Source of the DNA: Minisyncoccota bacterium
GTDB taxonomy: Bacteria > Patescibacteriota > Minisyncoccia > Phycocordibacterales > JABAAK01
Assembly (NCBI GenBank): GCA_965204115.1
Contig: OZ241963.1
Coordinates: 532,622-596,621 of the forward strand
Direction of reading: 5' to 3'
DNA length: 64,000 bases
Positions 2,429-44,413 of the stretch are shown here, piece by piece (positions within the stretch are counted from its first letter, which is position 1; each line of letters begins with the position of its first letter). The position numbers and the translations under genes are program-made. The notes under the pieces are model-generated. The model had not been told where the DNA came from, made no database searches, and worked only from the letters and a program-made list of their open reading frames with translations.

Positions 2429-5122
2429 ATGATTGCCGCTCTGAAGAAGAAGAAAATACCCAGCAGTGTGTCTAAGAAGCGGGGCGTTGGGGCAGTAAAA
2501 AAGAAAACTTCATCAAAATTTGCCGCCAAGGGAAAGGTCGGTGGTGATAGCGATTGGATACGGGTGCGCGGTGCGTCCACGCATAATTTGAAACAGATTG
2601 ATGTTGATATTCCGCGGAATACGATGACGGTGTGTACGGGGCTATCGGGTTCCGGGAAGTCGTCATTGGCGTTTGATACCATTTTTGCAGAGGGGCAGCG
2701 GCGGTATGTTGAGTCGTTGTCGGCGTATGCACGGCAGTTTTTGCGGCAGATGCAGAAGCCGGAAGTGCGGGAAATTACCGGATTGTCGCCTGCTATTTCT
2801 ATTGATCAAAAAAGCCGTTCTAATAATCCGCGGTCTACCGTCGCGACGATTACGGAGACCTACGATTACCTGCGGGTGTTGTTTTCTCGGGTTGGGGTGC
2901 CGTGTTGTCCGACCTGCGACACGGTGATTGAGCGAGTGTCGCAGGAGGAGATTGTGAAGCGGCTTGATAAGAAGATACAGCAGGAGAAGTGGTTTGAGAA
3001 GAACACGAAGGTAGTCGGTGTGCCGTATAATGATCGGGCGATTTCAATTTTTGCGCCGGTGGTGGTCGGGCGAAAGGGTGAGTACTATCAGCTGCTGTAT
3101 GATATGTTGCGTAAAGGGTACGAGCGGGCGCGGATTGACGGGGAAGAGTATAGTTTGCGGAATCGGATCACGCTTTCCAAAAACAAAAAGCACAATATTG
3201 ATATTTTCGTTGACTCGTTGTACCTGAGTGACTATGCGAAAGATCCGAAAGTGTTTCGTGAGCGAGTGTCTGATGCGGTTGAGCGGTCGCTGCATGAGGC
3301 GGACGGGCTGGTGCGGTTCGGGTATCCGGACGGTACTGATGCACTGGTGTCATCGCGGTTTTTGTGTCCGAAGTGCGGGTTTTCGTTTCCGGAGATTGAG
3401 CCGCGATTGTTTTCATTTAACTCACCGTACGGAGCATGTGAGGTGTGTAATGGGCTGGGACAGATTGATATGATTGATGACTCCGAGTGTTCTGCGTGTG
3501 AGGGCGGGCGTTTGCGGCCGGAGGCACTGCAGGTATTTTTACTGGACAAAAAAGGCGAGCGATTCAACATCAACACGATTATCGGGATGACCATTACCGA
3601 TGCATTAGCGTTTTTTGACGGGCTGCAGGTGACAAAGCAGCAGCAGGAGATTGTGGAGCCGCTGTTTAATGAGATTGTCGGGCGGATTTCATTTTTAGCG
3701 GATGTGGGGCTGGAGTACATGACGCTGGATCGGCGGGCAAACACGCTTTCCGGTGGAGAGGCGCAGCGGATACGGCTTGCCTCGCAGCTCGGGTCGGGGC
3801 TGGTCGGGGCGTTGTATGTGCTGGATGAGCCGACGATCGGCTTGCATCAGCGGGATAACGATCGGTTGATACAAACCCTGACGCGGCTGCGGGATTTGGG
3901 GAACACCATTATTGTCGTTGAGCATGATGAGGATACTATTTTTGCGTCTGACTACCTCGTTGACATCGGTCCCGGGGCGGGGAAGCATGGTGGCGAGGTG
4001 GTGGTGTCGGGCTTTCTTGAGTCGCTGCTGTCGGCGAAGCGGAATTCGTCCGGGTCACTGACTTTGTCGTACTTGCGGGGTGAGCGGCGGATTGAGGTTC
4101 CGGACAGGCGGCGGAATACGCAGGCGGGGCGGTTGGTGCTTACGGGTGCGTCGGCGAATAATATAAAAAATATGACGGTTGAGATTCCGCTCGGGCGTAT
4201 CACAACTATTACCGGCGTTTCCGGGTCGGGTAAATCAACACTGCTGTATGATTTGGTGTATAAGAATTTGCGGCATAAGCTGGAAAGGCGGCTGACGGTG
4301 GCGAAAGCATTTAACGCTAATCGATTCACAGGGTATGAGCATTTGAGTCGGGTGGTGTTGGTTGATCAATCGCCGATTGGGCGGACACCGCGCTCCACGC
4401 CGGTGACCTATGTCGGTGCGTTCACGCATATTCGGGACCTCTTTGCCTACACCGAGGAGGCGCGGTATCGCGGGTGGAAGCCGGGGCGGTTTTCGTTTAA
4501 TGTGTCAGGCGGGCGGTGTGAGAAGTGTCAGGGGAACGGGTCGGTGGCGGTTGAGATGCACTTTTTGCCGACCGTGCATGTGCTGTGTGATATGTGTTTC
4601 GGGAAGCGGTATACCAAGGAGGTGCTGGGTATACAGTATCGGGGGAAGAGTATTTATGATGTTTTGGCTATGCCGGTGGAAGAGTCCGTGCAATTTTTTC
4701 ACGACATACCGGCAATCCATGATCGATTGCGGACTTTGGAGGATGTGGGGCTCGGGTATTTGGAGCTCGGGCAGCCATCCACGACGCTTTCTGGCGGAGA
4801 AGCGCAGCGGGTGAAAATTGCCTCTGAGTTGTATCGCCCGAACACCTACAAGACGATATACCTGCTGGATGAGCCGACGGTCGGGCTGCATTATGAGGAT
4901 GTGGCGCGGTTGATAGCGATACTGAATCAGTTGGTTGATCGCGGGAACACGGTGTTGCTCATCGAGCATAACCTTGATGTGATTAAGTGCTCTGACTATG
5001 TTATTGATATCGGTCCGGAAGGGGGCTTGCGGGGCGGCACTGTCGTGGCGAAAGGCACGCCGGAGCAGGTGGCGAATGTCAAGGAGAGCCACACGGGGAA
5101 GTATTTGAAAAGGGTGTTGTAG
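2429..5122 (+). CDS. uvrA: Excinuclease ABC subunit A (UvrA) with a lysine-rich N-terminal extension of about 40 aa
   Basis: Two ABC ATPase modules: GLSGSGKSSLAFDTI and GVSGSGKSTL Walker A, plus LSGGE signatures. Zn-finger motifs CPTCD, CPKCG, CEVCNG and CEKCQGNG. 897 aa. Confidence 0.95.
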   Translation: MIAALKKKKIPSSVSKKRGVGAVKKKTSSKFAAKGKVGGDSDWIRVRGASTHNLKQIDVDIPRNTMTVCTGLSGSGKSSLAFDTIFAEGQRRYVESLSAYARQFLRQMQKPEVREITGLSPAISIDQKSRSNNPRSTVATITETYDYLRVLFSRVGVPCCPTCDTVIERVSQEEIVKRLDKKIQQEKWFEKNTKVVGVPYNDRAISIFAPVVVGRKGEYYQLLYDMLRKGYERARIDGEEYSLRNRITLSKNKKHNIDIFVDSLYLSDYAKDPKVFRERVSDAVERSLHEADGLVRFGYPDGTDALVSSRFLCPKCGFSFPEIEPRLFSFNSPYGACEVCNGLGQIDMIDDSECSACEGGRLRPEALQVFLLDKKGERFNINTIIGMTITDALAFFDGLQVTKQQQEIVEPLFNEIVGRISFLADVGLEYMTLDRRANTLSGGEAQRIRLASQLGSGLVGALYVLDEPTIGLHQRDNDRLIQTLTRLRDLGNTIIVVEHDEDTIFASDYLVDIGPGAGKHGGEVVVSGFLESLLSAKRNSSGSLTLSYLRGERRIEVPDRRRNTQAGRLVLTGASANNIKNMTVEIPLGRITTITGVSGSGKSTLLYDLVYKNLRHKLERRLTVAKAFNANRFTGYEHLSRVVLVDQSPIGRTPRSTPVTYVGAFTHIRDLFAYTEEARYRGWKPGRFSFNVSGGRCEKCQGNGSVAVEMHFLPTVHVLCDMCFGKRYTKEVLGIQYRGKSIYDVLAMPVEESVQFFHDIPAIHDRLRTLEDVGLGYLELGQPSTTLSGGEAQRVKIASELYRPNTYKTIYLLDEPTVGLHYEDVARLIAILNQLVDRGNTVLLIEHNLDVIKCSDYVIDIGPEGGLRGGTVVAKGTPEQVANVKESHTGKYLKRVL

Positions 5123-5249
5123 TTTTGTGGTACCGCTTTTTCATTGTCCTGTCGTGTTTTGTTGCGCTTGCGCAAAAAAGTTTTTCTTCACTTCGGTGTT
5201 TCTATTGTATTATACAGGTTAGACACTGTGTTCTAAGGAGGTGTGTGTG

Positions 5250-5519
5250 ATGGATGAGAATTCCGTTGCCGCTGCGGAAATATTTTTAATCGGGGAGCTG
5301 TCCCTGACCATACAGGATATTTCTCCCAGAAGTATCCCGAATGTTGTTGCTTCAGTGAAGAGTGCTGTTGCAAATTACCTGAAGGAGCACAATCTTTCTC
5401 TTCCTCTGAAAGTGCGTGGTGACTTGGAACGAGAGATCATCTTTGCTCTTATTGCCAGATCCGGACTTTCCCCCCGTGCTTTATCGGTAGTTGAGGACGC
5501 TGTGCTGGGTATTATATAG
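5250..5519 (+). CDS. Hypothetical 89-aa protein (MDENSVAAAEIFLIGELSL...)
   Basis: Strong SD AAGGAGG at 5235..5241, 8 nt before ATG 5250. Followed by an intrinsic terminator. No recognisable domain. Confidence 0.5.
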   Translation: MDENSVAAAEIFLIGELSLTIQDISPRSIPNVVASVKSAVANYLKEHNLSLPLKVRGDLEREIIFALIARSGLSPRALSVVEDAVLGII

Positions 5520-5546
5520 TAGTTTTCATTCACCCTGAGTTGTCGG

Positions 5547-5588
5547 GTGGCGGTGATACTTATTGTGTTGCCGCCGCTTTTTTATTTG
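5547..5588 (+). terminator. Rho-independent terminator after the small gene
   Basis: GTGGCGG...CCGCCGC 7-bp stem (one G.U) followed by CTTTTTTTATTTG. Confidence 0.45.
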
Positions 5589-5692
5589 TTACAGGGCGGT
5601 TCTCGTCTATGGCGGAGCAGTTTTTTGACACCTTCGTTCTACTGTTGTCTCATTCGCGCTGTTTTAGGAGGTGATTTTGTCCACGATTGTTC

Positions 5693-5721
5693 TTGACGAG
5701 GGAATATAAGCAGGTTACTAT
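5693..5721 (+). promoter_or_regulatory. Sigma70-like promoter for tuf: TTGACG, 17-nt spacer, TACTAT
   Basis: -35 TTGACG at 5693..5698, 17-nt spacer, -10 TACTAT at 5716..5721, about 175 nt upstream of the tuf ATG. Confidence 0.4.
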
Positions 5722-5895
5722 ATATAGTGTCGTGTGAACGACAGTAGTGCATCTGGCTCTTTTTTGCACATTGCTCCGTACTCGCAAAGCGAAATTCAAT
5801 TCGTTTTGCTCCTGTTGGTTGTTTGTGGAGCGGTGAGGTTATTGTGGCGGAAGGCGAAAAATCCCTGATTGCAGTTAATTATTCATATACAGAAA

Positions 5896-21474: not shown

Positions 21475-21651
21475 GGAAAGGGGTGGCGCTTGAGGAGGCG
21501 AAAGGGACAGTCCGGTTACAATCACCGATCAAAGCGAGGCGATCGAGATTCCCGCAAACAAAAAAAAGCGCGGAAGAATCCTTCCTCTGCGCTGATTGTT
21601 CGCGATCGCCACGGAAATCGTTTTAGTCGTACTGTTTGAGTTACGACAAAA

Positions 21652-21691
21652 GCCAGTTGTATTATTGCAATACAGCTGGCTTCTTTTTATT
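21652..21691. terminator. Bidirectional intrinsic terminator
   Basis: 12-bp stem GCCAGTTGTATT/AATACAGCTGGC with one G.U, followed by TTCTTTTTATT. On the minus strand it directly follows the stop of the ORF at 21687..21911. Confidence 0.55.
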
Positions 21692-21911
21692 GATTCAACA
21701 CACGAATGGTTTGTGAGTTGCTGAATATATCTTCACTCGGCTTTTTGCCGCTACTGTGGGTGACCATCGAGCTGATGCTGATGAACAGCAAGGTGGTCAT
21801 CAGGAGGCCGATTGTTGTTGTCTGCAATGGCGTTAACCGTTGCTTGATCGCCGCTTCTTTTTTTGTATCGTTTATTTTTTTATTCATACACTGCTGCTTC
21901 TTTGTATACAT
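21687..21911 (-). CDS. Possible small membrane protein (74 aa, one TM)
   Basis: ORF divergent from uvrD, ending at a bidirectional terminator. Weak RBS. Composition is K/T-rich. Confidence 0.3.
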   Translation of the reverse strand: MYTKKQQCMNKKINDTKKEAAIKQRLTPLQTTTIGLLMTTLLFISISSMVTHSSGKKPSEDIFSNSQTIRVLNQ

Positions 21912-21988
21912 ACATAGTATATCGTCCTATATTTTTTTTGTAGTAGTAATCCACAATGGTATTATGGTGGTGTTTTATTCTCTTGTTT

Positions 21989-23897: not shown

Positions 23898-26800
23898 ATG
23901 TTGGTTTGTCGGCACTTTCTTTCTATCTCGCTGGTGTTTCTGTTAGGGGTGTTTATTTTTGGGTCGGTGGTGGCTCAGACACCGGAGCGACCCTCCTGGG
24001 ATTCATCTTACTCAGTGTATGCGGGTGTTGGCATCGGGTATCGGTCAGGCGTGCGATTTTTTCGGGATGTCTCTGCTGATTTGCGGAGTGGAGATCCTGC
24101 GCCGTCATTTTCTGTGAAAGCGGGAACCTTCCTCCCCGTGGGGCTGCAGCTCACCAGCGCCGGTCATCTTGTCGGTACTCCCACTGGCGTGGGGGAGTCA
24201 CGCTTCACCGTCGTGGCACAGAATACCGCCGGTGTCGCTGAGAAACAGATTATCCTCCGCCTCCGTGAGTCCTTCAGTGGTAGCTATGTTCAAGGAGGCG
24301 CCCATTCTGACATCCTTGATGTCCAGGTATTCCTCAATAGCACTGATTGTCCTGTTGCTGAGACCGGCCCCGGTTCCCCCGGACAGGAGACCTCCTACTT
24401 CGGCACTAAGACCCGACAGGCGCTTGCTTGCTACCAGCGACTCCATTCTCTTCCTGTCGTTAGCGTACTCACCCCGGCTTTGTTCCGACACTTCATCCAA
24501 ACCCACACCAATCGTCTCATTTCCGGAGTCCCCACCTTGTTGCCCGGTCTGGATGTGCAGGGGAGGGAGCACCCCTTTGGCTCCACCCACCCCGACATCC
24601 GTCAGGCGCAGGTATACCTCAACGGCACCCCGTGTCCTGTTGCTGAGACCGGCCCCGGTTCCCCCGGACAGGAGACCTCCTACTTCGGCACCAAGACCCA
24701 GCAGGCACTCAACTGCTACCAGCGGCTGCACAACCTTCCTGTTACGAACACTATCACCTCAGCACTTCTTGCCCGCCTTGCCGATATTTCACCATCGGGG
24801 GAGCGTGGTGTCTGCGACCTGACCATCTCACAAGGATGTGCGGTCGGCACCCCTGTTCAGCACGAGTCCTCCTACATCTCCCGAGGAGAACGCTGGCGCT
24901 GCCGCGGTGTCAACCAGGGATACAGCTCCGACTGGTGCGTTCGCTGTGACGATGGCTACTCCTTTGACGGAAGAAACTGCACCCGTAGCACCGTACAAGA
25001 GCCCTCTGCTCTCCGCTGCTCCGGCACCACCGTCTCCTTCTGTCGTCTCCCTCGATCCGCGCACGGCAACACCGTTACCGGCGCCTGCTCTGTCGGACGA
25101 ACCGGCGCCTGTCGATACACCTGCAGTAACGGCACTTGGCAGCTTGTTTCAAATACTTGTTCTCAGTTGAACATTCAAGGACACCTCCCCGGCTCCACCC
25201 ACCCCGACATCCGTCAGGCGCAGGTATACCTCAACGGCACCCCGTGTCCTGTTGCTGAGACCGGCCCCGGTTCCCCCGGACAGGAGACCTCCTACTTCGG
25301 CACCAAGACCCAGCAGGCACTCAACTGCTACCAGCGGCTGCACAACCTTCCTGTTACGAACACTATCACCTCAGCACTTCTTGCCCGCCTTTCAGAACAC
25401 TACACCCCTCCCGTCTGGAACACGCCGCAGGACATCCCTCCACCCCAACAGCAATCCGGTCCGCCTCCTGCCCCTCAGGTTGTTGTGCCCCAGAACGGTG
25501 TCTGTGACCTCACTGTTTCGCAGGGCTGCACCGTTGGCACTCCTATTTACCACGAACCCTCCTATCCCCGAGGAGAACGCTGGCGCTGCCGCGGTGTCAA
25601 CCAGGGATACAGCTCCGACTGGTGCGTTCGCTGTGACGATGGCTACTCCTTTGACGGAAGAAACTGCACCCGTAGCACCGTACAAGAGCCCTCTGCTCTC
25701 CGCTGCTCCGGCACCACCGTCTCCTTCTGTCGTCTCCCTCGATCCGCGCACGGCAACACCGTTACCGGCGCCTGCTCTGTCGGACGAACCGGCGCCTGTC
25801 GATACACCTGCAGTAACGGCACTTGGCAGCTTGTTTCAAATACTTGTTCTTTTGCACAGCCGGGTAATCCCGGTAATGCAGGTTTGCCCGATGGTGAATT
25901 GGCTCAACTGCGAGCGGAACAACCACAGCAGCAGGTTGGACAATCGTCGCAGTATGGTAATCACTTTGGGTATGCTGTAGATGTCGGTGGTAATGTGTCG
26001 CTGCGTCCGTGCAAGATGAAACGATGCTGTGATCCGTTCTGTGAAAGAGATTCCGGTTGCAAGGAGTGTGCTGTGTGTGAGCGGTCGTGGTGTCCTGCAG
26101 ATTCCGGTTGCAGCGGGACCTGTTCCGAAGGTTCCGGTTGTAGGTGGTGTGTTGAATGTGATGAATTGTGTACAGAGTGTGATTGGGTTAAATTGCGGTG
26201 TCGGAAGCGAGTTCAAACGGCGATGGTGGGGGCGCATAATGCGGGGGCCGGTTCGGTGTATTTTTATGTTCGGCATGAAGACCAATCGGGGCAGATACAG
26301 TGGCGGCTGCAGCAGAGAGTTGCTGCGAGTGACGGGCAGGCAGGTGATGCGTTCGGCTATTCTGTTGCCTTGGATGAAGATGTGGCGATTGTGGGGGCGC
26401 CGAGGGATGATACCAATACCGGTTCTGCCTATATCTTTATGCGGAGTGATGGTCCGCTGTGGGTTCAGAAGGCAAAGTTGACCGCGAGCGATCGTGAGAC
26501 ATCTGATTACTTTGGATCTTCTGTTGCGATAGATGGAGCGACTGCTGTTGTTGGTGCGTATGGCGAGGATCCCGGCGGTACTCAGAATGCCGGAGCGATA
26601 TATGTCTTTGTTCGATCCGGAGATAGGTGGAATTTTCAGGCAAAATTAATAGCGGAAGATGAGGGGTGGGCTGATAAGTTTGGCTATTCAGTTGCTGTTA
26701 CCGGTAATACCATTAGTGTTGGGGCATACCATGATGATCCCGGGTATAAGCCCCGCGCCGGTTCTATGTATACTTTTATTAGGTCCGGGGGTAGGTGGGT

Positions 26801-37957: not shown

Positions 37958-40900
37958 GTGTATATGATGTTTGCTTTTATCAGGCGGCGGTGGGTTGTGT
38001 TCGGCACACTTTGTTTATTGTTGCTGTGTTTGGTTTTTGTGCCGCAGTTTGTGTTTGCTAATGTTGCTGATGGAATTACCAGCGTTATTAATGCCGTGGT
38101 CGGAGGTTTGATGAAGGGGCTTGAGTGGCTGGTCTCGCTGTTTCAATTCTTGTTTTTGCAGGTTATTCAATTTACCATTCTTGATTTTGCAAATCACTGG
38201 AAGGATAAGGGACTTCTTTCTGATTTTCGGGTGGTGTGGCAGGTCCTGCGGGATTTTGTGAACCTGTCCATTGTTGTGCTTTTCGTTCTTACCGCCATGA
38301 TGACTGTTCTTGACGCGAAAGGGCAATTCGGCTTTCACCGGAAGGGGTTGTTGTATTTGATTGCTGCTGCTGTTTTTGTGAATTTCAGTGCTTTCTTTAC
38401 TTTGCTTGTTATTGATGTTTCGCATATTCTGTTTATGTTGTTTTTTAATGCACTTGATGTGTCAACATTAGGATCGTTCTCGCCGTTCTCCGGGTATAGT
38501 GAGGTTTTGGGTAGTACTGCTGATGGCATTTTCAACATCATTCTCGGCGTTATTGCGATTGTGGTGAATTGGTTTATCATACTCGGCATTCTCTATTTCT
38601 GTATCATGTTGATTGAGCGGTATATTATTGCCATGTTTCTTGTACTTTTTTCGCCGTTCGCGGCACTCGGGTTTTTTACCAACATGTCCGGCGGTGGTAA
38701 CCCTCTTGCCGACAAGTTTTCCGGTGTGTATAAGATATGGAGTGAGCGGCTTGGCTATGTGTTCACCATGCCGGTCATACTTATCGTTGGGTTTGCGCTT
38801 CTGTTGGTTTTGTTCCGCGGGGCGTTGGGTCAGATGGTTGATCCTGATAACTTTGTTAAGTTGATTGGTGTTAACACTCCGGAGGGGCGGGGTATTCTCC
38901 TGCAGCTTATGCTTGCGAGCGTTGTGTTGATACTTGGCATTTTCAAGGTCGGTGAGTTTGCGAAGAATGCGAATATTCATCCCGCTATTGCTAATAAGTT
39001 TAAGTTTGGGGAACTGGCGTCCAAGCTGGTTCCAAAAGCGTCATCTGCTCCGAAAGCGGTACTTGGTGCTGTTCGGTCGATTAAGAACCCTGCCGGTCGG
39101 GGTGTCTTTGGTTATAAGCAAAAGATCTATGATCAGCGGAAGGAGTGGCAGCAGGCGCAGGATAGGGGGGAGAAGACGCCTTGGATCGCAAAGGTGCCCG
39201 GCGTCGGGAAGTCGCTTGATGTGGGGGGTAAAGTGCGGCGAGGCAGGCAGCGTGCTCAATCTATTGTTCGCGGCGCTCAGGTAGTTGCGGGCGGGCAGTC
39301 AGGTCGTAATGTTGACTGGCAGAATGCTGAGGCAAATGAGGACGCGAGAATCTGGGACATCATTCGTAACCCCACCAGCACTAGAGAGCAAAAGGAAGAT
39401 CTTTTGACGCAGGCGCTTGATGATAAGAGCAATGTTACGCTTAATGAGCAGCAGACCGCTGAGCTTGCGAGGAACATTGAGTTGCACCCACTGATTTCAT
39501 CATTGAAGAAGGGGGTTTCTCAGGGTACTTTCAGGCAGATACGAGGGGATGCGGAAGTACGGGCAAAGGAGCTTGCTGTTGAGAAGGATGCTATTGCCGC
39601 TGAGAAGGGCACCCCTCCTCCTGAGTATGAGAAGAGACAGCAGGAGCTTCACACTGCTGAGATAGATTATAAGGGCGCAGAGCTGGCGTATGATGATTTG
39701 ATGCGGCAAAAAAATTTTGCACAGGATGAGTTTAATGCCGCGAAGGAGGCATTTGAACAGACGGATGCGTATAAGAAGTTTAATCGAGATCTTGACAGTA
39801 AAATGCAGGACTTTGAGTCCGGCAAGATAGCTTGGGAGGATGTTGAAAATTTTGAGACCACTTTTTATGAGGATGCTGCAACTCGAACGCAAGCCGGTTC
39901 TGTCCGGCAGCAGAAGCTTGCTGTATTGGAGAAGATGAAGGATTCATTGCGTACGGCAAAAGATACAAAGAAGTCCGCGGACAATGTACAGCAGGGTGCC
40001 AAGAAAGCCTTTGAGGTTGAGGAGAGCAAGCATTATAATGCTATACGGCAAAAGGAAGACGCTAATACCAGTGCGCGAGGGGTGGTTACGCAGACATTTT
40101 CTAACCTTGCGACGAATACTGCCGCAGGTACCTCTGTTTCAAGAAATGCAGCAGCGGTGTTTGACCCTGATGCATTGAAGGATGCGCGTGCGGAGCGGGA
40201 GTCCGTTGCTGCTCCTATTGATAAGCAATTTCAGAATATGAAAAATGATTATGCGAAGTCGTCCGCAGTCGCTTTGGAGGACCTTAAGGCAGAAGAGAAA
40301 ACTATTGCGGAGAAAAACGCTGAGGAGAATGCGGATCTTCTTGAGAAGCGGGAGGAGTATGCTGATGAGGAGATGCAGAATCCTAACCCCAATGTTCTTA
40401 CGAGTCGCATGTTTGAGCTTCAGGAGGAGATTGATGCTTTGGAGCAGGAGTCCGCCGCGCGTCGTGAGCGATCTTTGGCGATTAATGCGGAGAGAGGTCG
40501 TATTAGGTCTATCAGAAAAAATCTTGAGAAGCAGGATGTTTCTGATTCTGAGAAGCTTGCCGTTCTTGGTGAATCTGTCAAGAGTGCGAAGTCATTTGTG
40601 CAGGGTGGGACGCAGTATCTTACTGCTCAGCTGAAGGCTGTTGATGATAAAATGACTGCGCTTGAATCTGTGGCGAAGCAGCGGGGTACTGATGTGAATA
40701 GCAATAGTGAGTACACAGATCTGCGGGATGAGCAAGAGCGCATCACCAATCGTATTGGGTATATCGGTCGTGTCGGTGGCAGTATTGCGGAGGTGGGTGA
40801 GGCCTTAGATGAGCAGAAGGAGATCCTTGAGAGTCCGGAATATACCGACGCTCTTGGTCAGGAACAGTATCTCTCGCTGTTCAGTGTGAAGACCTTACTG

Positions 40901-41188
40901 CGTGATATTGAGTCGGCTCTGGAAAGGCGTAAGAAGGCCTTTACTGAGAAGGAAGAGAAGAAGCTGGCGAAGAAGATGAAAGAGCAAGGGAAGAAGGGCG
41001 CTCCGAAGGTTCCGAAGAACGCTCATAAGGAGGATCCTGAGTGGAAGGTTCTTGACCAGCAGAAGAAGAATCTCAAGAAGATACAGGCGGAAGGTGGTGC
41101 CTCTGCTGAGCTGCAGCAGGCGGCCGTTAAGGCGGCAGAGCAGCTGGCAAAGCAGCAAGCGCAGAAGAAAAAACAGAAACAAAAATAG
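37958..41188 (+). CDS. VirB6/TrbL-like polytopic membrane protein with a long K/E-rich coiled-coil C-terminal extension (1076 aa)
   Basis: N-terminal signal-like helix, then at least six TM helices over about 330 aa, then about 700 aa of charged coiled coil. Sits immediately upstream of the VirB3/VirB4-like genes. Confidence 0.6.
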   Translation: MYMMFAFIRRRWVVFGTLCLLLLCLVFVPQFVFANVADGITSVINAVVGGLMKGLEWLVSLFQFLFLQVIQFTILDFANHWKDKGLLSDFRVVWQVLRDFVNLSIVVLFVLTAMMTVLDAKGQFGFHRKGLLYLIAAAVFVNFSAFFTLLVIDVSHILFMLFFNALDVSTLGSFSPFSGYSEVLGSTADGIFNIILGVIAIVVNWFIILGILYFCIMLIERYIIAMFLVLFSPFAALGFFTNMSGGGNPLADKFSGVYKIWSERLGYVFTMPVILIVGFALLLVLFRGALGQMVDPDNFVKLIGVNTPEGRGILLQLMLASVVLILGIFKVGEFAKNANIHPAIANKFKFGELASKLVPKASSAPKAVLGAVRSIKNPAGRGVFGYKQKIYDQRKEWQQAQDRGEKTPWIAKVPGVGKSLDVGGKVRRGRQRAQSIVRGAQVVAGGQSGRNVDWQNAEANEDARIWDIIRNPTSTREQKEDLLTQALDDKSNVTLNEQQTAELARNIELHPLISSLKKGVSQGTFRQIRGDAEVRAKELAVEKDAIAAEKGTPPPEYEKRQQELHTAEIDYKGAELAYDDLMRQKNFAQDEFNAAKEAFEQTDAYKKFNRDLDSKMQDFESGKIAWEDVENFETTFYEDAATRTQAGSVRQQKLAVLEKMKDSLRTAKDTKKSADNVQQGAKKAFEVEESKHYNAIRQKEDANTSARGVVTQTFSNLATNTAAGTSVSRNAAAVFDPDALKDARAERESVAAPIDKQFQNMKNDYAKSSAVALEDLKAEEKTIAEKNAEENADLLEKREEYADEEMQNPNPNVLTSRMFELQEEIDALEQESAARRERSLAINAERGRIRSIRKNLEKQDVSDSEKLAVLGESVKSAKSFVQGGTQYLTAQLKAVDDKMTALESVAKQRGTDVNSNSEYTDLRDEQERITNRIGYIGRVGGSIAEVGEALDEQKEILESPEYTDALGQEQYLSLFSVKTLLRDIESALERRKKAFTEKEEKKLAKKMKEQGKKGAPKVPKNAHKEDPEWKVLDQQKKNLKKIQAEGGASAELQQAAVKAAEQLAKQQAQKKKQKQK

Positions 41189-41201
41189 CGAGGGTAGTGG
41201 G

Positions 41202-41230
41202 TTGACAGTATATATTTTTTATGGTATAAT
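41202..41230 (+). promoter_or_regulatory. Consensus sigma70 promoter: TTGACA, 17-nt spacer, TATAAT
   Basis: -35 TTGACA at 41202..41207, exact 17-nt spacer, -10 TATAAT at 41225..41230. Confidence 0.55.
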
Positions 41231-41236
41231 TATATT

Positions 41237-41440
41237 GGACTTCAATAGTCCCTGTCCTGCCGTGCGGTCAGTTTACTGACCACAAAAATGGACATACTGA
41301 AGTTCTTTAAAAGTGACCTTCCTTATTAGTGCCCGCAAGGGGTAGCTGCTTCGGCGGCATGGGAGGTCCATAACTATCTGATAGAGTTACGCTTGCCCAA
41401 CCGGTTTCCATAAGACTGGTTGGGCATTTGTTATTTTTAT
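41237..41440 (+). ncRNA. Structured leader or small RNA of about 200 nt between the consensus promoter and an intrinsic terminator, immediately upstream of the VirB3/VirB4-like genes (candidate attenuator, riboswitch or sRNA)
   Basis: Four hairpins: GGACT-tcaat-AGTCC, GGTCAG-TTTA-CTGACC, CCC-GCAA-GGG (GNRA tetraloop) and GCTGC-UUCG-GCGGC (UUCG tetraloop). Terminator GCCCAACCGGT/ACTGGTTGGGC at 41395..41425 followed by ATTTGTTATTTTTAT. No ORF inside. Confidence 0.4.
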
Positions 41441-41458
41441 ACGCTATACTGTGTTTGT

Positions 41459-41914
41459 ATGCGCTTTCAGGTTCCGCAAAATTTAGATGTGCCGGATACT
41501 ATTCTTTTGGGTTTGGATTTTAGGCAGCTGATTTACCTTGGTGGTGCTGCCGGACTTTTGGTGTTTTTGTTTCTGTTTTTTGGTATTTTGCCGACGGTCT
41601 TTATTGGTGGTCCGGTTGCTATTCTTGCGGGTTTTTTGTCGTTTTTTACCTATAATAACCAGAAGTTTGTCACGCTTTTTCAATCGTTGATACGGTTTTT
41701 TTCCCGGAAGAAGATGTATGTGTGGCGGCGTGGTACTATTGACGCAGCAGTGCGGCGCACAGCTAAGGAGGATGACTCCGTTGACGGGGAATTTGTGCAC
41801 CCGGACTCTTATTCGCAACGACAGCGGCTGGATAAGGTTCGTGAAGTGAGTGCCAATCTTGTTTTTTCTGATGATGGGGGTGACTCGTATGATGAGCTTG
41901 ATATTGTTCTATGA
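41459..41914 (+). CDS. VirB3/PrgI-like small 2-TM protein of T4SS-type systems
   Basis: About 150 aa with a two-TM hairpin (LIYLGGAAGLLVFLFLFFGILPTVFIGGPVAILAGFLSFFTY), directly before the VirB4 ATPase. Start chosen at the ATG downstream of the terminator; track start 41420 overlaps the terminator. Confidence 0.55.
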   Translation: MRFQVPQNLDVPDTILLGLDFRQLIYLGGAAGLLVFLFLFFGILPTVFIGGPVAILAGFLSFFTYNNQKFVTLFQSLIRFFSRKKMYVWRRGTIDAAVRRTAKEDDSVDGEFVHPDSYSQRQRLDKVREVSANLVFSDDGGDSYDELDIVL

Positions 41915-42531
41915 CTGCAAACACCACCACACAATCATTTGTTCCTTTGAAGGATATTCAAAATGGTATTGTTACCCGGGATGACGGTGTTTTGTGTGCC
42001 GTGTTGTTGGTTTCGTCTGTCAATTTTAACCTGAAGTCGGAAGATGAGCGGCAGGCCATTCTCTATCAGTTTCAATCTATCTTGAATTCGCTTGAGGTCG
42101 GTGTTCAGATTATTGTCCAGTCGCGACGGCTCAATATTAAGCCCTATCTGCAGTACCTTGAGGAGGTGTATGAAAAACAGACCATTGAATTGTTGCGTTT
42201 GCAGACGCGGGAGTATATTAACTTTATTTCTGATTTTACGGAGCGCAATGAGATTATGACAAAACAGTTTTTTGTTGTTGTTTCGTATTCCCCTGTTTCG
42301 TCCGGCGGTCTTGCCGGCGGACTGCCTTTTTTAGGCAAGAAGGAGGCGACATCGGAGCAAAAAATGACCGAGGAGCATGTTACGCAGTTGCTGCAGCGAG
42401 TTTCTTTTATCCAGAATAATATACGGGCATTAGGATTGCGAGCGGTGCAGCTCGGTACTGAGGAGGTGACTGAGTTGCTGTACAAGACCTTCAATCCGGG
42501 TGATACGCAGACGCCTCCTCCTGCAACTTAA
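41911..42531 (+). CDS. VirB4/TrbE/CagE-like ATPase, N-terminal domain fragment (206 aa) of a split gene
   Basis: VPLKDIQNGIVTRDDGVLCAVLLVSSVNFNLKSEDERQAILYQFQSILNSL matches the N-terminal CagE_TrbE_VirB region of Gram-positive-type VirB4 (PrgJ/TcpF-like). ATGA overlap with the upstream gene. Confidence 0.7.
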   Translation: MTANTTTQSFVPLKDIQNGIVTRDDGVLCAVLLVSSVNFNLKSEDERQAILYQFQSILNSLEVGVQIIVQSRRLNIKPYLQYLEEVYEKQTIELLRLQTREYINFISDFTERNEIMTKQFFVVVSYSPVSSGGLAGGLPFLGKKEATSEQKMTEEHVTQLLQRVSFIQNNIRALGLRAVQLGTEEVTELLYKTFNPGDTQTPPPAT

Positions 42532-42580
42532 TACATTTGTTTTGCCTCCGTGATGTTTATCTGGTGTATTATATTGGTAT

Positions 42581-44413
42581 ATGGGTATTTTTGATGCGTT
42601 TGGTGGCAAGAAGCAGGGGGATTCCTCAGTGCGTGCTGTTACTGAGGAGGATTTTATTCCTGAAGCTGCGTTCAGTCCGGCAACTATCGGCTTGCGGGAT
42701 GTTATCGCGCCGCCGGCTATACAAATAACTTCACGACATGTTGCTTTAGGGAGTAAGTTCGCCCGATCTTTTGCGGTGGTGTCATACCCGCGGTTTTTGA
42801 ACGAAGGATGGTTTTCTCCGGTTATTAACTTGAGCAAGGAATTTGATATCGCCATCTTTGTGCATCCGATGAATTCAAAAGATGTGTTGCGGAAGTTTCG
42901 GCGAAAAGTGGCGCAGGTTGAGAGTCAGATTATTGAACGGGAGAGCAAGGGGATGGTGCGTGATCCGAAGCTTGATACCGCACACCAAGATCTTGAGGAT
43001 TTGCGTATGAATATTCAGCAGGCGACTGAGCGGATGTTTGAGGTTGGGGTGTACATCACTATTTACGGTGAGACGGTTGAGGAAATCAATGAAGTTGAGA
43101 AAGATATGCGGTCGCTGCTCGAAGGGAAACTTATTTTTGTGAAGCCGACTGTCTTTCAGCAGGAGCAGGGGTTTCGGAGCACAAGCCCGTTCGGCACTGA
43201 TTTGCTTTCTATTCACACAAAGCTGAACTCTGAGCCGTTGTCAAGCTTGTTTCCGTTTATCTCTTTTGATTTGTCCGCTGAGAAGGGGATACTGTACGGT
43301 ATCAATCAGCACAATGCCTCACTTATTCTGTTTGACCGTTTTTCTCTGCCGAACTATAACTCAGTCACCTTCGCGACCTCCGGTGCAGGGAAGTCGTACG
43401 CCATGAAGCTTGAGGTGCTGCGATCGTTGATGGTCGGTGTTGATGTTATCGTGATAGACCCGGAGCGGGAGTTTGAGCGATTAGCGCAGGCAACGGGCGG
43501 TCGTTACTTTAATGTTTCATTGAATTCGGAACACCATGTTAATCCGTTTGATTTGCCACCGGTCGGTGAGGATGAGAATCCGTCCGATGTATTGCGCAGC
43601 ACGGTTATTAACCTTGTCGGTTTTTTTCGGGTGCTGCTCGGCGATTTGTCGCAGGAGGAAGAGTCAATTATTGATCACGCGATTCGTGAAACATATGCAT
43701 TGAAGGACATCACGATGGAAGGGGGTTTTGAGCATATTGATCCTCCGCTTATTTCTGACTTTGCGCTTGTGCTCGCGGGAATTGAGGGCGGTGAGCAGCT
43801 TGCTGAGCGACTCAGTCGGTATACAACCGGTTCGTGGGCCGGATTTTTGAATCAGCCGACCAACATTGATATCGGTCGGCGGTTTGTTGTTTTTTCTATA
43901 CGGGATATGGAGGATGATTTGAAGACCGCTGCTATGTATATCATTACGCGGTTTATTTGGAATAATATTCGGAAAAAATTGAAGAAGCGGCTGTTAGTGG
44001 TTGATGAGGCGTGGATTATGATGCAGTCGGGCGACACCGCTTCTTTTTTGTTCGGTTTGGTAAAACGCGGTCGGAAGTATTACCTCGGTGTGGGTACTAT
44101 TACGCAGGATGTCGGAGATTTTTTGCGGTCGGATTATGGTAAGCCGATATTGAATAACTCTTCTTTGATTTTGCTGTTGCGGCAGTCGGCGACTTCCATT
44201 GACCTGGTGCAGCAGACCTTTAACCTGACTGACAGTGAGAAGTACCTCCTCCTTGAGGCAGCGGTCGGTGAAGGGCTTTTTATTGCCGGTTTGAAGCGGG
44301 TTGCTATAAAAATCATCGCCTCTTTCACTGAGGATAAAATTATTACCACCGATCCGTCTCAGCTCCTTAATCAGCAGCGGGTTGTGCAGCAGCAGCCACT
44401 TGATGCGGTATGA
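42581..44413 (+). CDS. virB4: VirB4/TrbE-like T4SS ATPase, C-terminal ATPase part (610 aa)
   Basis: Walker A FATSGAGKSYAMK, Walker B LLVVDEAW. The TcpF/PrgJ-like middle region IAPPAIQITSRHVALGSKFARSFAVVSYPRF is also present. Confidence 0.9.
   Translation: MGIFDAFGGKKQGDSSVRAVTEEDFIPEAAFSPATIGLRDVIAPPAIQITSRHVALGSKFARSFAVVSYPRFLNEGWFSPVINLSKEFDIAIFVHPMNSKDVLRKFRRKVAQVESQIIERESKGMVRDPKLDTAHQDLEDLRMNIQQATERMFEVGVYITIYGETVEEINEVEKDMRSLLEGKLIFVKPTVFQQEQGFRSTSPFGTDLLSIHTKLNSEPLSSLFPFISFDLSAEKGILYGINQHNASLILFDRFSLPNYNSVTFATSGAGKSYAMKLEVLRSLMVGVDVIVIDPEREFERLAQATGGRYFNVSLNSEHHVNPFDLPPVGEDENPSDVLRSTVINLVGFFRVLLGDLSQEEESIIDHAIRETYALKDITMEGGFEHIDPPLISDFALVLAGIEGGEQLAERLSRYTTGSWAGFLNQPTNIDIGRRFVVFSIRDMEDDLKTAAMYIITRFIWNNIRKKLKKRLLVVDEAWIMMQSGDTASFLFGLVKRGRKYYLGVGTITQDVGDFLRSDYGKPILNNSSLILLLRQSATSIDLVQQTFNLTDSEKYLLLEAAVGEGLFIAGLKRVAIKIIASFTEDKIITTDPSQLLNQQRVVQQQPLDAV

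Follow-up and report, generated by a model that had tools for sequence, protein, structure and literature searches.

The genomes of the CPR/Patescibacteria are tiny and, to our knowledge, almost nothing has been described about the non-coding RNAs of this group or about the regulation of its genes. The DNA analysed here, a stretch of 64 kb referred to as the window, belongs, by the relatives of its VirB4 protein, to Candidatus Kaiserbacteria/Paceibacterota, within the CPR/Patescibacteria. Its plus strand carries, directly ahead of a cluster of T4SS-like genes, a short region (41202-41440) in which a preliminary description had recognized a promoter, a leader devoid of open reading frames, four hairpins and an intrinsic terminator. 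These features had been read as those of a transcription attenuator or riboswitch, or of an independent sRNA, with a regulatory input into the T4SS-like genes. The question raised by this locus is what kind of element it contains: a leader acting in cis on the genes that follow, an RNA gene in its own right, or no functional RNA at all. On balance, the evidence presented below leans towards a stand-alone gene for a new structured small RNA of a narrow clade, always located beside the T4SS-like cluster and probably acting via its folded core.

The putative RNA gene starts with a promoter (41202..41230, plus strand) composed of a -35 hexamer TTGACA (41202-41207), a 17-nt spacer and a -10 hexamer TATAAT (41225-41230). 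Its early reading as a textbook TTGACA-17-TATAAT promoter is borne out: 12 out of 12 positions match the consensus, and this is the sole perfect example in 64 kb. In addition, the TG located upstream of TATAAT (the spacer ends in TG-G) constitutes an extended -10. Perfect matches to TTGACA-N16-18-TATAAT are expected 0.00 times according to dinucleotide shuffles, and the other full -35/-10 matches of the 64-kb window appear at chance frequency only. All nine copies of the RNA, i.e., that of the window and those of eight related loci described below, carry a promoter with TTGACA, TTGTTA or TTGCCA, a spacer of 16-17 nt, and TGn plus TATAAT, TATTAT or CATAAT. In the nine of them the first helix, P1, begins 7 nt past the -10, which is the expected position of transcription start. 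To judge from these copies, both the promoter and the register of P1 with respect to the predicted +1 belong to the conserved unit.

At the opposite end, the region is closed by an intrinsic terminator (41394..41440, plus strand). The intrinsic character and the U tract that had been assigned to it both stand, but the stem has 14 bp rather than 11 (41394-41407 with 41413-41426); seven of these pairs are G-C, the loop is composed of five nucleotides (CCAUA), and the U tract extends along 41427-41440 (TTTGTTATTTTTAT). A covarying stem of 12-14 bp followed by a U tract is found in all copies, with compensatory changes in 9 of the 14 pairs. The terminator hairpin has a dG of -18 to -23 kcal/mol and an ensemble probability of 0.91-1.00 in seven of eight sequences; the low helix values in the ensemble calculation are alignment-register shifts. 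The distance from the end of the U tract to the next ATG, that of the prgI/virB3-like gene (41459), is 18 nt in the window, close to the 20 nt or so estimated in advance for a terminator upstream of VirB3/VirB4-like genes. The RNA delimited by both signals (41237-41440) has a minimum free energy of -80.2 kcal/mol, compared with -54.2 +/- 4.6 kcal/mol for shuffled sequences (z = -5.6; 0 of 200 shuffles as good). The transcript, with its ends placed by prediction, would be about 196-217 nt long. The proposed lack of an ORF in the leader also agrees with the comparative data: no ORF is conserved in the RNA among homologs, in which the 13-codon ATG ORF of the window is absent or different, and a small protein as the product of this region is ruled out on these grounds. 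Two other gaps of the window (5123-5868 and 21475-21955) are likewise long intergenic regions with strong terminators; neither of them resembles the RNA, and the former holds a small ORF led by a Shine-Dalgarno (SD) site.

The RNA is organized, on the plus strand, in a 5' hairpin domain, a single-stranded linker, a three-way junction, and a further hairpin engaged in a pseudoknot. The 5' hairpin domain (41237..41305, with the predicted +1 at G41237) comprises P1 (41237-41244 with 41298-41305), which is 97-100% paired and shows compensatory changes; P2 (41253-41257 with 41290-41294), which is 85-88% paired; and the P3 apex (41266-41271 with 41276-41281), whose length differs between relatives. 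The linker (41306..41314) is A-rich (UUUAAAAGU in the window; consensus UUAAAAAGG) and is conserved in both alignments, A1 and A4. The core of the three-way junction (41315..41368) is formed by P4 (41315-41323 with 41359-41368; 4-6 pairs with both sides changed), P5 (41331-41334 with 41340-41343) and P6 (41345-41349 with 41354-41358; loop UUCG), the last two being 97-100% paired. The covariance model of this core (R1) scores the window copy with 60.2 bits (E 1e-9). The loop of P5 is GCAAG or, in an alternative register, the hairpin reads CCC-GCAA-GGG. In the window variant of P7 (41371..41389), UAACU (41371-41375) pairs with AGUUA (41385-41389). Finally, a covarying H-type pseudoknot joins UUAG of J4/5 (41326-41329) to CUGA of the P7 loop (41378-41381).

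This fold is richer than the four hairpins initially noticed, a count that had missed P2, P3, the three-way junction and the pseudoknot of J4/5 with the P7 loop. The two hairpins then singled out, CCC-GCAA-GGG (41332-41341) and GCUGC-UUCG-GCGGC (41345-41358), are indeed present, but the GNRA and UUCG tetraloops are not features of the family. Only the window has the GCAA and UUCG loops; P5 in the relatives carries mostly a pentaloop of the GNANA type (GCACA, GAAUA, GAAAA, GAACA), and the P6 loop is variable. Conserved bases are found in the junction (UGACU, GUAG, and UAUCU), and the loops of P5 and of the terminator share a conserved GCACA-like motif. A scan for alternative helices also displayed a 6-bp helix between the 5' arm of P1 and the 3' arm of P4, which was judged to be a by-product of the similar purine-/pyrimidine-rich arms and of G.U tolerance.

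The RNAalifold consensus contains 48 pairs with 23 compensatory double changes. P2 and the pseudoknot, the latter recognized by eye, were added to this consensus, and the pairs were then counted on A1 and A4. For the full structure with the pseudoknot, 95.4% of the cells are paired in A1, with 28 of 58 pairs changed on both sides, and 94.5% in A4 (which includes L089), with 31 of 58; these counts are drawn from kin sequences of one narrow clade, phylogenetically non-independent, and do not represent probabilities. Moving the 3' partners by 1-3 columns leaves 32-43% of pairing and 3-9 pairs changed on both sides, and none of 500 column shuffles matched the observed pairing and covariation. The slid control, in which the relatedness of the sequences is retained, is decisive for covariation. 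Every helix, as well as the pseudoknot, presents compensatory changes. The pseudoknot helix is 97.5% paired, has three of its five pairs changed on both sides, and exists as three variants whose strands complement each other (CUGAA/UUCAG, CUAGA/UCUAG and, in the window, UUAG/CUGA); two of its pairs divide between A-U and G-C in a 4:4 (A1) or 5:3 (A4) proportion. L089, which was outside the training set of the covariance model, scored 59.5 bits (E 2e-10). The paired cells include 58 G.U as opposed to 7 A.C, and therefore selection is acting on the plus-strand RNA. The examination of homologous loci for conservation and covariation, suggested together with the preliminary description, thus comes out in its favour, with nine copies, 28-31 of 58 pairs changed on both sides, and compensatory changes above those of the controls, as in any conserved structured RNA; the covariation is unusually clean for so few sequences. 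Comparative sequence analysis establishes a conserved promoter, structure and terminator, a plus-strand polarity, and the absence of coding potential.

No known family accounts for this RNA. The covariance-model scan that had been recommended, made with Rfam 15 at gathering score, detected only three tRNAs in the window, all of them elsewhere, and a single tRNA in 12 related loci; at E<=10, the window, L081 and L085 gave either nothing or unrelated weak matches, with no family in common. Known RNA families, including raiA, 6S, SRP, and the riboswitch and ribozyme classes, are ruled out by this lack of Rfam 15 matches. The element was not found either in the literature on CPR non-coding RNAs, CPR leaderless genes or T4SS-associated RNAs in CPR. 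By all these searches the RNA qualifies as a previously undescribed candidate family, which would be a new fold among the orphan structured RNAs of bacteria or among candidate cis-regulators.

The distribution of the RNA was studied in 80 T4SS loci from reference genomes and in the 11 loci encoding the closest VirB4 proteins. It is present in nine loci, eight of them distinct (the window, L002, L081, L082, L084, L085, L086, L087, and L089; the RNA locus of L087 is nearly identical to that of L002). The VirB4 proteins of the RNA-bearing relatives are 92-93% identical to that of the window, and the RNA has diverged far more than the proteins: the L002 copy has 69% identity within its alignable part, and the mean column identity of the RNA alignments is 57-71%. 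In the nine copies the prgI-like gene comes immediately after the RNA, on its strand and at a distance of 18-20 nt. The neighbour on the other side differs: the window, L081, L082 and L084 have a membrane protein of ~1,100 aa there; L085, L087 and L089 have ArgRS together with small ORFs; and L086 has an rve integrase. Model R1, which covers 91 positions of the core, was run on 89 sources (1.06 Mb) that included 76 more distant CPR T4SS loci, and its matches were confined to family members. Neither the window nor the 90 other loci contain a second copy. Scans of JGI metagenomes with two core patterns, and of viral contigs, yielded 0 matches; the second JGI pattern recovered all eight non-window members as a positive control.

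Several close relatives lack the RNA at the position upstream of prgI. This is the case for L001 and L090, whose VirB4 is 92% identical to that of the window, and for L083, L088, L003 and L004 (79-88%); in L091 the end of the contig interrupts the locus, and only a terminator hairpin is visible. A VirB4 neighbour-joining tree (no bootstrap) places L001 with L084, within the clade that bears the RNA; L090 and L091 take a basal position in it, and the others are outgroups. One gain followed by at least one loss is the simplest history compatible with this tree. The RNA-less junctions of L001 and L090 (TAGTTGA|TTTATACGCTATACT and TAGTTGGGTTG|TTTTCTGTGCTATACT) resemble deletions extending from the -35 hexamer as far as the U tract. 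At least one nested genome, that of L001, appears to have lost the RNA from this position, and there it would be dispensable or relocated. It is important to note that all the copies come from one genus-level clade, and that the synteny with prgI may reflect inheritance rather than function.

The genes situated after the RNA seem to have their own transcription signals. The first of them (41459-41914, plus strand) encodes a PrgI-family membrane protein, designated here prgI/virB3-like (Pfam PrgI, 33 bits, cutoff 27). It is followed, on the same strand, by a gene for a TrsD-like or VirB4 N-domain protein (41911-42531; TrsD, E 6e-6) and by virB4 of the CD1110 family (42581-44413; NCBIfam conju_CD1110, 345.9 bits, cutoff 325). 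Pfam also reports a TraG P-loop match among these genes. The identification of the 1076-aa protein encoded upstream as VirB6 was unsupported by Pfam or NCBIfam. Ahead of the prgI-like gene, and outside the RNA although decisive for its interpretation, there is a promoter-like box on the plus strand (41445..41461), in which TATACT (41445-41450) is separated by 8 nt from the ATG (41459-41461) with no Shine-Dalgarno site. This arrangement is found in 12 of 12 members of the Kaiserbacteria-like clade, whether the RNA is present or not (the spacing is 10 nt in L083); the 8 nt between the box and the ATG are variable in sequence, and the box itself is invariant. L001 and L090, for instance, keep prgI-trsD-virB4 and the TATACT box and lack the upstream RNA promoter. 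In more distant CPR lineages, TGGTATAAT is found 10-12 nt ahead of the same prgI ATG. At virB4 the sequence is TATTAT-8-ATG, and the layout of a -10 box close to the ATG recurs in about a dozen further genes of the window. The box is not a mere effect of base composition, because the genome also holds genes with clear Shine-Dalgarno sites (AAGGAGGT). A -10 element so near the start codon is a recognized signature of leaderless or near-leaderless genes; the same signature is reportedly seen at leaderless genes in mycobacterial maps of transcription start sites. This implies that prgI would be transcribed from a promoter of its own, into a leaderless or near-leaderless mRNA, and leaderless-type promoters are a predicted attribute of the T4SS genes throughout the clade. 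With -10 boxes of their own, these genes would therefore not depend on read-through.

The mechanism proposed for the RNA is as follows. A strong sigma-70-type promoter (-35, 17 nt, extended -10) would start the transcript at the first base of P1. The nascent RNA would fold into the 5' hairpin domain, the A-rich linker and the three-way junction P4/P5/P6, a strand of the junction would pair with the loop of the following hairpin P7 to form the pseudoknot, and the strong intrinsic terminator would release the transcript, which is probably abundant. The prgI/virB3-like, trsD-like and virB4 genes would be transcribed from their own -10 boxes, 8 nt before the ATGs, as leaderless or near-leaderless mRNAs. 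The RNA would act, most likely in trans, via the sequence-conserved junction and pseudoknot core, which could be a binding platform for a protein or a small molecule, or possibly a catalyst. A promoter at the very 5' end of the RNA, a terminator of its own and the absence of a conserved ORF, that is, the marks by which an sRNA gene is recognized, are all found at the sequence level. The strict placement by the T4SS-like cluster is suggestive of a link with this machine, in function or in co-expression.

The alternative closest to the original idea is a cis-acting leader, either a riboswitch or a protein- or RNA-dependent attenuator, whose core would respond to a ligand or factor and thereby set the amount of read-through from the strong promoter past the terminator into prgI-trsD-virB4 or, alternatively, the degree to which the upstream unit interferes with the prgI promoter. 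The location of the nine copies, in the same orientation directly upstream of prgI with three differing upstream contexts, is the classic signature of a cis element; the three-way junction and the pseudoknot, with their conserved junction bases, resemble an aptamer, and a terminator comes directly after the conserved fold. However, of the properties of an attenuator that can be read from sequence, only position and orientation are found here: a conserved competition between terminator and antiterminator is not observed, and read-through expression is not what the sequence predicts. The alternative-helix scan of the alignment recovers all the proposed helices and no conserved antiterminator, the best competitor of the 5' arm of the terminator being a 5-bp pairing that is broken in L002 without compensation. 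There is no overlap between core and terminator, which are joined by a linker of variable length (longer by 17 nt in L086), and the core helices coexist at high probability in the thermodynamic ensemble with a terminator that is itself strong. Moreover, prgI keeps its own TATACT-8-ATG, and a read-through mRNA would have an internal AUG without a ribosome-binding site; L001 and L090 retain the same T4SS genes without the element; and no riboswitch class of Rfam is matched. We consider a cis-acting leader unlikely, though its probability is still appreciable. Between the two options left by the preliminary description, the attenuator is not favoured, given the prgI box, the missing antiterminator, the variable linker and the RNA-less loci, and the independent sRNA fits better; any regulatory input into the T4SS would be hypothetical.

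A stand-alone RNA could also work in a manner other than through its folded core. A trans-acting sRNA that pairs with T4SS or other mRNAs by means of an unpaired segment (a loop, for example, or the A-rich linker), and so controls their translation or stability, would agree with the stand-alone promoter-terminator architecture, which is typical of sRNA genes, and with the conservation of unpaired segments (UUAAAAAGG and the GCACA-like motif). Against it, complementarity to the 5' regions of prgI, trsD and virB4 is no better than that of shuffles and the sites are inconsistent, in a crude test that was based on duplexfold and mononucleotide shuffles and covered the 5' regions of these three adjacent genes only. 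An elaborate conserved tertiary fold with a junction and a pseudoknot is, besides, atypical for seed-pairing sRNAs, and the fold of this RNA counts against such a role. Antisense pairing is probably not the mode of action, and we regard a base-pairing sRNA as distinctly improbable. Much more improbable still is that there is no RNA function, the region being a DNA-level element (inverted repeats, e.g., an oriT or a protein site) or a neutral or selfish insertion that carries a promoter and a terminator. The narrow distribution with presence and absence among close relatives, the rve integrase that adjoins the RNA in L086, and the location in a conjugation-derived gene cluster would be in line with such an origin. 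Nonetheless, the predominance of G.U over A.C points to selection on the plus-strand RNA and not on duplex or cruciform DNA, the compensatory changes extend to all helices and the pseudoknot, and the promoter and the +1 register are conserved. Flanking direct or inverted repeats were not found, neither was a second copy in the window or the 90 other loci, nor a match in viral contigs, and patescibacterial T4SS clusters are mostly devoid of a relaxase (PMC12102498). A Type III toxin-antitoxin RNA (ToxI-like) was discarded as well, as there are no tandem or direct repeats in 41190-41450 and the downstream gene encodes a PrgI-family membrane protein.

A conserved and strongly promoted pseudoknotted RNA of ~200 nt is unlikely to be idle, because CPR genomes are so small. 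Its position beside the T4SS-like cluster offers a concrete handle on the control or the assistance of that machine, and the candidate family enlarges the short list of orphan structured RNAs from bacteria. A bolder proposal is that of a new RNA class dedicated to the patescibacterial T4SS-like machine: either a riboswitch or factor-responsive element that tunes prgI-virB4 expression via termination or by promoter interference, or else an RNA that serves the secretion/uptake apparatus as partner, substrate or scaffold. We hold this to be doubtful, a speculation with perhaps a small chance of being right. The T4SS-like machine is thought to underlie the episymbiotic lifestyle, and a dedicated RNA class would matter in that context, if true. 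The narrow distribution (nine loci of one genus-level clade, with at least one loss) tempers the weight of the finding.

Among known systems, the closest in logic is the raiA motif RNA (RF03072) of Bacillota and Actinomycetota, an RNA of ~200 nt with covarying helices, pseudoknots, and its own promoter and terminator (PMC10861870). It was named for the gene often found downstream and was later judged to be a stand-alone and abundant non-coding RNA; it often adjoins the DNA-uptake gene comFC, occurs in more than 2,500 species, and has a variable orientation and distance to its neighbours (PMC10861870). The RNA described here shares with it the size of ~200 nt, the pseudoknotted fold, the conserved junction nucleotides and the promoter of its own. 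However, it does not match the Rfam model of raiA, which comprises P1-P8 and two pseudoknots as opposed to one pseudoknot plus a three-way junction; it is known from nine loci of one CPR clade and not from more than 2,500 species; and it always lies 18-20 nt upstream of prgI and ends in a strong terminator.

The nearest system to the attenuator idea is the prgQ leader of pCF10 in Enterococcus faecalis, which involves the Qs RNA, the IRS1 terminator and Anti-Q, and controls conjugation: read-through of the terminator activates the transfer genes (PMC3181467). The Qs RNA codes for the iCF10 peptide, and the attenuation needs a cis-encoded antisense RNA (PMC3181467). In both cases a promoter and a short terminated RNA precede monoderm-type T4SS genes that include prgI, but the RNA of the window has no conserved ORF, its prgI has its own promoter box, and there is no sequence similarity. 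A conserved promoter for a countertranscript was not found, the only candidate being a weak minus-strand site, present in four of eight copies and directed away from the RNA body. Countertranscript attenuation of the pCF10 type is not supported at this locus, which has neither a peptide-coding leader nor a conserved antisense promoter. Terminator-type riboswitches, such as c-di-GMP-I/II and ZTP, are similar in that they combine a compact fold with junction and pseudoknot, conserved unpaired bases and a terminator upstream of genes for membrane or secretion proteins. They differ from the present RNA, which has no Rfam match and no mutually exclusive terminator/antiterminator pairing, and is followed by a gene with a promoter of its own and without an SD site.

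Regarding the proteins, the genes of the window, in the order prgI, trsD-like and virB4, correspond to the patescibacterial T4SS cluster (VirB4, TrsD, PrgI/VirB3, VirB6, and a VirB2-like protein), which is widespread in Patescibacteria, usually with no relaxase (PMC12102498). The survey of this cluster deals with proteins and chromosomal position only, the word 'promoter' having no occurrences in it and 'RNA' a single one (PMC12102498). In Southlakia, the one CPR lineage tested, the cluster is essential for epibiotic growth (PMC12102498).

Many genes of the window carry a TATACT, TATTAT or TATAAT box located 6–11 nt upstream of the start codon and have no Shine-Dalgarno sequence. Among them are the prgI/virB3-like gene (prgI), found directly downstream of the structured RNA, with box and start at 41445–41461 (+), and virB4, with box and start at 42567–42583. 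Both genes belong to the leaderless type, with a box that does not vary within the clade. Further starts with such a box and no Shine-Dalgarno sequence are found at 2429, 18715 (−), 30210, 48548, 49725 and 57358. Strong AAGGAGGT sites, on the other hand, are a feature of other window genes, and leaderless-type and Shine-Dalgarno-led genes seem to be mixed in one genome. One example of the latter type, at 5251–5579, is a small ORF of about 89 codons in which AAGGAGGT precedes the ATG at 5251, followed by a 15-bp terminator; it lies in a 750-nt stretch that separates annotated long ORFs. This ORF is ordinary, but it would escape ORF lists that apply a length cut-off.

Other promoter-like sites are also present in the window. 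The second-best promoter match, TTGACA-17-TATACT (11/12), is located at 2009–2037 (−) and directed leftward, into a region in which any ORF would cross the window start and is thus absent from the ORF list. At the 5′ end of the RNA itself, a minus-strand site, AGGACA-18-TATAAT (41229–41258, 10/12 match), is made by the reverse complement of one arm of P2, a helix of the 5′ domain, together with the palindromic TATAATTATA. This probably incidental site is found in 4 of 8 copies of the RNA, and its direction is away from the RNA body.

The region upstream of prgI varies among the type IV secretion (T4SS) loci of relatives. In one of them, L086, which contains the RNA, the insertion of an rve-family (DDE) integrase gene (1527–2588) separates ArgRS from the RNA promoter and leaves the RNA-prgI junction intact. 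The L091 contig has only 84 nt of sequence in front of prgI (L091 1–84), in which no more than the terminator position is visible; this position is occupied by a perfect 13-bp hairpin, TGGGCATAGCATG-CTTGCA-CATGCTATGCCCA, of unrelated stem sequence and followed by a T tract. In L004, a more distant locus, about 400 non-coding nucleotides (4540–4945) precede prgI and contain several G+C-rich hairpins, two of which resemble intrinsic terminators on the minus strand. This stretch matches neither Rfam nor R1, the covariance model of the RNA core; it could contain another RNA, or transcription units that converge.

Directly upstream of the RNA in the window is the gene of a 1076-aa protein (37958–41188, +), for which no match was obtained in Pfam or NCBIfam. 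Its N-terminal 350 aa or so are hydrophobic, multi-pass and conserved (62% identity with the neighbour in L001, a locus without the RNA), and the C-terminal part diverges and has a K/E/Q-rich tail at its end. Within the T4SS cluster, this protein could play the part of a VirB6-like channel component. Elsewhere in the window, the GC skew is uniformly positive except in a single 2-kb bin (24001–26000, −0.16), which also has the highest G+C content (0.59) and falls within the gene of a 1314-aa protein with FG-GAP and peptidoglycan-binding repeats.

Downstream of prgI, the 206-aa protein encoded at 41911–42531 (+) has matches to TrsD and to VirB4 models, in the latter case to their N-terminal domain; therefore, the VirB4 function is split between a small N-domain protein and the ATPase. 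The same division of VirB4 into a small N-domain protein and an ATPase has been reported in Patescibacteria (PMC12102498).
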